A stretch of DNA of 64,000 nt from a virus (lineage: Duplodnaviria; Caudoviricetes), in IMG/VR virus record IMGVR_UViG_3300046030_000054, positions 1 through 64,000 of that record; one strand, 5' to 3'. Positions 39,923-40,260 of the stretch are shown here, piece by piece; the stretch's first letter is position 1, and every line of letters begins with the position of its first letter. The translations under genes and the position numbers were made by a program. A model generated the notes under the pieces. The model saw only the letters and a program-made list of their open reading frames with translations. It was not told the origin of the DNA and made no database searches.

Positions 39923-39969
39923 AAAAAGTGTACTAATCCCGCTCGTCAAAATCAGAATTAGTACACTTT
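39923..39969. terminator. Inverted repeat homologous to 288-336
   Basis: AAAGTGTACTAAT / ATTAGTACACTTT. Confidence 0.7.
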
Positions 39970-40007
39970 CAATCAGCTATAAATGCCGTCATACCGGCGT
40001 TTATCGG

Positions 40008-40080
40008 CTATTTTTCTGTACGTTCCAGGACAGTAACGCTCTCCACATGCCACGAGATCAGTTGGTCAATTACACATTCT
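40008..40080 (-). other. Unit junction 2 (att-like): conserved arm fused to an rlmD/rumA-like 3' remnant HVESVTVLERTEK*
   Basis: Minus strand GAATGTGTAATTGACCAACTGATCTCGTGGCATGTGGAG; homologous to 373-445. Confidence 0.65.
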
Positions 40081-40260
40081 TAATTAACCGCTACTCTACA
40101 AAATTATCTTTGCTTAATCAAAAATATTGTGTTTATTAACTCGCTTTCATAATTCCAAATCTTCCCTTACTTTTGAGACGAATAGTAAGTCTCAAGTTAT
40201 TACCGGTTTGCGGGAACACATAAGTTATAAAAAAGTGATTCAAGATGTTTGTGGAAAAAG

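Follow-up and report, generated by a model that had tools for sequence, protein, structure and literature searches.

Staphylococcal SCCmec cassettes encode a pair of large serine recombinases (CcrAB), insert at the 3' end of rlmH (orfX), which is kept intact, and stack as units at this site. In streptococci, the 3' end of rum (rlmD) is the integration site of the Phi-m46.1 group of phages, which are siphoviruses (PMC4288039). Tandem elements at rum have been described in streptococci (PMC5053989), and in 2026 the phage integrase pair was reported to excise single units as well as complete phage-ICE tandems (PMC13651849). Furthermore, the concept of cf-PICIs has been described (bioRxiv 10.1101/2022.09.08.507074). 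The locus analysed here, a stretch of 64,000 nucleotides (the window), very probably represents a tandem accretion array at the 3' end of rlmD (rumA), which is composed of ~40-kb tail-less phage-like elements and was formed by rebuilding of the landing site through the right arm of each element. The two units of the array were termed E1 and E2.

The window constitutes the first 64,000 of the 75,951 bases of its contig. The source assembly (GCA_022483805.1) was found by exact-protein look-up and carries the array on a 1.55-Mb contig, flanked on both sides by host genes. As the window and the assembly probably represent one and the same record, the latter does not count as independent evidence for the array.

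A repeat search of the window revealed two copies of a junction sequence, at 263-457 and 39898-40092, with a start-to-start spacing of 39,635 bp. BLAST aligned 288-457 with 39923-40092 at 75% identity over 170 bp (E 3e-27), and the 12-mer ACATGCCACGAG was found in the window only at 410-421 and 40045-40056, with 0 occurrences expected in shuffled sequences. Read on the minus strand, junction 1 ends in ...SWHVECVTVLKRVGK and junction 2 in ...SWHVESVTVLERTEK (its tail was also read as HVESVTVLERTEK), each followed by a stop. The tail at both junctions consists of 13 codons and a stop codon, located at 373-375 and 40008-40010, respectively. A second shared block comprises 569-582 and 40205-40218 (13/14 positions matching) as well as 611-621 and 40248-40258 (11/11). 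The first-pass annotation had reported a second junction copy exactly 39,635 bp from the first and a second shared block at ~569-620 and ~40204-40258, and both were recovered in this analysis. Three matches to the motif GTTTGYGGRAA were counted in the window (0.2 expected), all of them within the two left arms. Two such junctions might also be expected from an assembly chimera, in which the elements of two strains were joined at shared junction sequence, and it is consistent with this that the record is a trimmed virus-type contig and that its sole other sighting is probably the same assembly. However, the junction repeat is only 75% identical and contains no long exact words, and host genes flank the array on both sides of the long contig, which makes a chimera very improbable.

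The gene at the far side of the array was identified in GCA_022483805.1. Past the E2 recombinases, the gene of a 1300-aa MucBP adhesin is followed in this assembly by the arm in its third copy and, 4.5 kb from the recombinases, by an intact rlmD gene encoding 450 aa. The host RlmD scored 425.8 bits on TIGR00479 (NCBIfam RlmD; cut-off 183.55). It was only 49% identical to RlmD of Limosilactobacillus, and its best match in a genus-wide rlmD search reached 80% at the amino acid level. The C-terminal end of the host protein, ...MFPQTPHVESVTVLERTEK followed by the stop, has the same tail (HVESVTVLERTEK) as the junctions. The third core, at window-equivalent position 80179, defined the extents of the units: E1 spans 416-40050 (39,635 bp) and E2 spans 40051 to ~80179 in window-equivalent coordinates (40,129 bp), with its end lying beyond the contig. 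The expectation that rlmD would be located beyond E2 was thus borne out, although not in the form of an interrupted gene: rlmD is intact because the element arm replaces its tail.

The position of the crossover was determined from an alignment of empty sites (attB), attR, attL and both window junctions. The rlmD arm and the left arm of the element part directly after ACATGC, the rlmD arm continuing with GTCGTCTGTGGGAAC (Phe-Pro-Gln-Thr-Thr codons) and the element left arm with CACGAG...TTGGTCAATTACACATT. In the coding sense the core reads G-CAT-GT and is located at His-Val-Glu codons of rlmD. The same codons are spanned by the 18-bp attB of Phi-m46.1, GCATCACGTGGAGTGTGT (PMC4288039). The array contains three cores, at 415, 40050 and ~80179 (window-equivalent). 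In the core of junction 1 (ACATGC/CACGAG, 410-421) the alignment placed the crossover at or just left of the step from 415 to 416. The identical core of junction 2 (40045-40056) joins the right arm of E1 to the left arm of E2 and is a hybrid, attP-like site. The attR next to the host rlmD reads ...CAACATGC joined to GGCGTTTGCGGGAAC in the source assembly.

The right end of E1 (P1 arm, 39702-40050, minus strand) contains a terminator hairpin at 39923-39969 (z-score -5.8), the stop codon and 13 replacement codons, HVESVTVLERTEK, at 40011-40049. After the stop, the right arm carries two hairpins, of which the second is followed by a U run. With this replacement tail and the hairpins, each element supplies rlmD with a tail and a terminator. 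A right arm abutting rlmD was found in about ten related elements of Limosilactobacillus and Lactobacillus. In 10 or more related loci, the stretch resembling 39702-40050 corresponds to the end of an intact rlmD together with the DNA downstream of it, and the similarity to the window ends at 40050 in every related rlmD locus examined. In 7 related loci, an intact rlmD was seen to adjoin the right arm, as it does at E2. The order at the loci of L. antri, L. coleohominis, L. secaliphilus, L. oris, L. galli and one MAG is recombinases, 1.6-3 kb of variable DNA and the rlmD arm; the rlmD gene of these relatives is intact (458 aa) and is followed by dagK and gatBAC. When species genomes were searched for relatives of the second recombinase, proteins with 75-97% amino acid identity in the best segment were retrieved, mainly from Limosilactobacillus.

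The arrangement of the arms suggests how such an array may be built. The recombinase pair, as the probable catalyst, would cross over at ACATGC within the His-Val-Glu codons of rlmD, and rlmD would stay intact through the 13 replacement codons, the stop and the terminator that the right arm (P) brings along. Because the P arm reproduces the chromosomal arm that it displaces, the rlmD-side junction would resemble an empty site, and a second element could land there. Landing of the newcomer at the rlmD-side junction would account for the composition of junction 2 from the right arm of E1 and the left arm of E2. E2 would then be the latest arrival, only the rlmD-proximal unit or the whole stack would possess a canonical attL/attR pair, and the units may still be able to excise. 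Landing next to a resident element is suggested by the similarity of the arms. Recombination between attP and attR is, to our knowledge, not a reaction of ordinary serine integrases, which counts against this step.

The left edge of the window was found to be a remnant of a third unit. The contig starts inside an insertion sequence (IS) of the IS30 family, of which positions 1-31 are the end. The same 38-43 bp IS end adjoins the C-terminus of the transposase in three Limosilactobacillus genomes, and in GCA_022483805.1 the gene of a 308-aa HTH_38+rve transposase lies just left of window position 1. The following arm (P0, 32-415, minus strand) is the relic right end of the third element, with a hairpin at 288-336 (z-score -5.6), the stop at 373-375 and the 13 codons HVECVTVLKRVGK at 376-414. 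This arm was 86% identical to the DNA between the recombinases and rlmD of a more distantly related element from Limosilactobacillus (genome G055), and on the far side of the IS another 85 bp of the G055-type arm (97.6%) were followed by host genes with 52% GC. Since the host rlmD is so distant from that of Limosilactobacillus, the P0 arm was acquired horizontally. The left arm of junction 1 is therefore a ~470-bp relic of a third, older element, which was split by the IS30-family insertion. As a consequence, both junctions in the window are element-to-element junctions.

The identity of positions 1-31 as an IS30-family end also explains a perfect 20-bp inverted match between 11-30 and 36683-36702. 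These positions were considered as the ends of E1 and rejected, because the 20-mer is the IS30-family terminal repeat and the DNA past 36.7 kb travels with the element. A boundary at ~36.7 kb would imply that pncA-pncB-nrtR is chromosomal and that the array has two separate insertion sites; apart from the inverted match, it is favoured by the backbone homology between E1 and E2, which stops at 36697 and 75703, respectively. However, the segment from 36.4 to 40.05 kb, including pncA-pncB-nrtR, was found at 97% identity in an element of L. vaginalis and at 95% in an element of Lactobacillus johnsonii, ending at rlmD in these elements, and its GC content is ~44% compared with 49-52% in the host flanks. 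A boundary at 36.7 kb is thus very unlikely, and the boundaries of E1 lie at the junctions, as originally annotated. Because the segment occurs at rlmD elsewhere, 36.7 kb is a mere module boundary and the NAD-salvage operon (36.8-39.6 kb), as judged from these comparisons, belongs to E1 and not to the chromosome. The operon constitutes the right-arm cargo of E1 (36777-39643, minus strand; Pfam) and encodes PncA (isochorismatase), PncB (NAPRTase) and NrtR; this cargo may counter NAD-depleting defences. The inverted IS30-family repeat at 36683-36702 stands exactly where the E1 backbone yields to the right-arm cargo. E2 keeps only the first 9 bp of this terminal repeat (GGCAGATTG), and the repeat at the border between backbone and cargo of E1 may be a relic of an IS-mediated exchange of cargo.

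The remaining modules of E1 were assigned with Pfam, NCBIfam and PADLOC profiles. The left arm (P1', 416-621) is non-coding and conserved; it contains TTGATTAATTACACATT as well as blocks of the GTTTGYGGRAA type at 570-580 and 611-621. It is followed by defence cargo on the minus strand (622-12411; Pfam, PADLOC), which comprises a DUF2513 gene, a GmrSD type IV enzyme, pieces of a type IIG-like restriction-modification (RM) system and a Hachiman system at 11012-12411, in which HamB is intact and HamA is distributed over two ORFs (PADLOC profile positions 1-244 and 303-436). The backbone (12577-33100, plus strand) contains a replication part with a sigma factor, DUF2800, an Enc34-type SSB, PolA, a D5 primase, SNF2 and a ParB-methylase (Pfam/NCBIfam), and a head and lysis part with TerL, portal, ClpP-like protease, HK97 capsid, connector, head closure, holin and GH25 lysin. 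Head closure is directly followed by holin, lysin and SHOCT genes. The lysin, a GH25 enzyme with CW_7 repeats (31764-32642), is present only in E1; in E2, position 71650 joins 71657. The recombination module (33114-36614, plus strand) encodes a SHOCT_2 protein (33114-33353) and two overlapping large serine recombinases (33383-35044 and 35037-36614), both with the Pfam domains Resolvase, Recombinase and Zn_ribbon_recom. A search with Pfam and NCBIfam and of the ORF list revealed no tail genes in E1, E2 or the L. coleohominis element. Conjugation genes (relaxase, coupling protein, VirB4) were absent as well, the large backbone ORFs being phage replication and head genes and the unscanned ORFs having at most ~150 aa. 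Consequently, a conjugative element (ICE), which had been considered as a candidate, was rejected on the basis of the phage replication and head genes found by Pfam.

E2 is organized in the same order. Its left arm (P2', 40051-40260) contains GTTTGYGGRAA blocks at 40206-40216 and 40247-40257 and shares 73-79% identity with those of the L. coleohominis and L. antri elements. The adjacent defence cargo (40261-52282, minus strand; Pfam, PADLOC) encodes a type III RM system (Res, Mod), an SNF2 helicase with two further genes and a Lamassu-like LmuA/LmuB-like pair; an exact-protein search with the first of the E2 cargo genes gave no match. Defence genes were thus detected by Pfam and PADLOC in the left ~12 kb of both units, in agreement with the earlier proposal that the units carry such genes. 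The backbone, recognized by its match to that of E1, extends on the plus strand from 52471 past the end of the window at 64000, and the SHOCT gene and both recombinase genes are intact at contig positions 72078-75626. The stretch at 75711-75951 was considered as a MarR-like target gene of E2 and rejected, as it is a short uncalled ORF in the right arm of E2, upstream of the MucBP gene. The 1300-aa product of the latter, a MucBP/LPXTG surface adhesin (L153:11915-15817), represents the right-arm cargo of E2, and a shorter relative occupies the same slot in L. antri.

Comparison of the two units revealed that 12577-31764 and 32649-36699 of E1 match 52471-71650 and 71657-75711 of E2 at 79-84% identity. 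The E1 backbone was 90% identical to that of the L. antri element, 88% to that of the L. coleohominis element and 83.5% to that of E2, and the right arm of E2 was 90-94% identical to the right arm of L. antri. The gene order and the size of E1 and E2 are alike, as would be the case if a single element had been duplicated in place and the copies had then diverged, but the cargo of both the left and the right side is unrelated and E1 is closer to elements elsewhere than to E2. Duplication in place is thereby practically ruled out, and the units have independent origins. The comparison supports an independent and sequential arrival of E1 and E2: E1 resembles the L. antri element more than it resembles E2, and the cargo of the two units differs, in line with the sequential integration at rlmD that the first-pass annotation had proposed.

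Alternatively, the array may have formed by accretion at rlmD and now be a fixed, immobile island, in which the junction repeats are scars. We consider this the less probable reading, yet one of some weight, as E1 shows hints of some decay (HamA is split and the type IIG-like RM system is in pieces), the IS30-family element and the 470-bp relic indicate decay at the left edge, and short derivatives of 3-25 kb hold the same site in other genomes. On the other hand, the recombinase and SHOCT genes of both units are full length, as are the head and lysis genes, the arms and the core are conserved across about 20 elements, and the E1-type and E2-type arms are 90-97% identical in other genera, implying recent transfer.

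The distribution of the element ends was assessed in other genomes. About 20 elements of other genomes share a conserved left arm of ~210 bp, including the box GGTTTGYGGGAAC, which is nearly identical to the rlmD half-site adjoining the core. Every left arm of the family contains two GTTTGYGGRAA-type boxes about 40 bp apart, ~155 and ~200 bp inside the element, which are near-copies of the rlmD half-site (Phe-Pro-Gln-Thr codons). A captured rlmD pseudogene in the left arm was considered but is not supported, since blastx of left arms against rlmD yielded only short FPQT matches (E ~0.5-4); the boxes might, at a guess, be accessory binding sites. Of 74 species genomes of Limosilactobacillus, 18 contained the core pattern of the left arm, and the reversed control gave no match. 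In none of these 74 genomes did the core occur twice on one contig, so full double stacks appear to be uncommon. The distance between the core and rlmD varied from 3 to 39 kb across genomes, which indicates that full elements and short derivatives coexist. A pattern scan of viral contigs retrieved only three loci.

Two further loci showed composite structures. In Lactobacillus johnsonii ATCC 33200 (L016:9321-15817), an E1-type remnant with a truncated recombinase, pncA, pncB and nrtR lies next to rlmD, and another junction copy and element DNA to the left of it constitute a second, decayed stack in another genus. In L. antri (G001:C19:642500-692000, reverse strand), a ~9-kb block (composite positions 2141-8167) is located left of the native attL; it contains a type III RM system ~80% identical to the E2 cargo and a degenerate junction copy, and it does not fit a simple stack.

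The rum/rlmD hotspot and accretion by serine recombinases, until now known mainly from streptococcal resistance elements, therefore also occur in Lactobacillaceae; tandem stacking at rum/rlmD has already been published for streptococci, and the host here is of the Lactobacillus type. The 80-kb block at this locus collects swappable anti-phage systems (Hachiman, type III, type IV and type IIG-like RM systems and a Lamassu-like pair) and in addition holds the NAD-salvage operon and the adhesin. As they are tail-less, encode their own head genes and share near-identical arms across genera, E1, E2 and related elements are candidate vehicles by which defence genes could pass, with the aid of a helper, between lactobacilli of gut and food. 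A more far-reaching model, which we regard as doubtful, would view the stack as an ordered store that works on the last-in-first-out principle. The stored units would be tail-less, capsid-forming elements with defence cargo, able to move from one genus of Lactobacillaceae to another; newcomers would always insert beside rlmD, and the left-arm boxes would act as accessory sites for one of the two recombinases, or for SHOCT, that set the direction.

In comparison with the known systems, the first-pass interpretation as SCCmec-like cassettes holds only as an analogy. SCC elements share with E1 and E2 the pair of large serine recombinases, the intact 3' end of an rRNA methyltransferase gene as the target and the stacking of units. 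However, the target is rlmH (orfX) in one case and rlmD in the other, the recombinases of E1 and E2 scored only 77-135 bits on the NCBIfam models of CcrB, CcrA and CcrC (cut-offs 700-900), and E1 and E2 are phage-like units with replication, capsid and lysis genes. The cf-PICIs likewise have their own terminase, portal, protease, capsid, connector and head closure genes and no tail. E1 and E2 differ from them in their size of ~40 kb, the full PolA/primase module, the holin and lysin and the use of serine instead of tyrosine recombinases, and no helper phage is known for them. The streptococcal tandems at rum and rplL (ICE_ICE, ICE_prophage and phage-ICE) resemble the array in the head-to-tail order at one att site and in the presence of three att-type junctions; in the array, which is known from its sequence, both units belong to one tail-less phage-like family and carry no conjugation genes.

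The closest resemblance is to the Phi-m46.1 group (Phi-m46.1, PhiSsUD.1 and the S. suis phi-Ssu..._rum prophages), with which E1 and E2 share the integration at the His-Val-Glu codons at the 3' end of rum/rlmD and the location of cargo at the ends. Over 99% of its length, the second recombinase shows 53% identity to that of S. suis phi-SsuFJNP3_rum, and PolA, primase, SNF2 and methylase genes as well as TerL, portal, protease and HK97 capsid genes are common to the S. suis rum prophages and the elements described here. The streptococcal rum phages possess tape measure, tail and receptor-binding genes, which E1 and E2 lack. The cargo differs as well, with antibiotic resistance in the Phi-m46.1 group and anti-phage defence, NAD salvage and an adhesin here, and the hosts of the present elements are Lactobacillaceae. 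E1 and E2 are thus tail-less relatives of the rum-integrating prophages of the Phi-m46.1 group.
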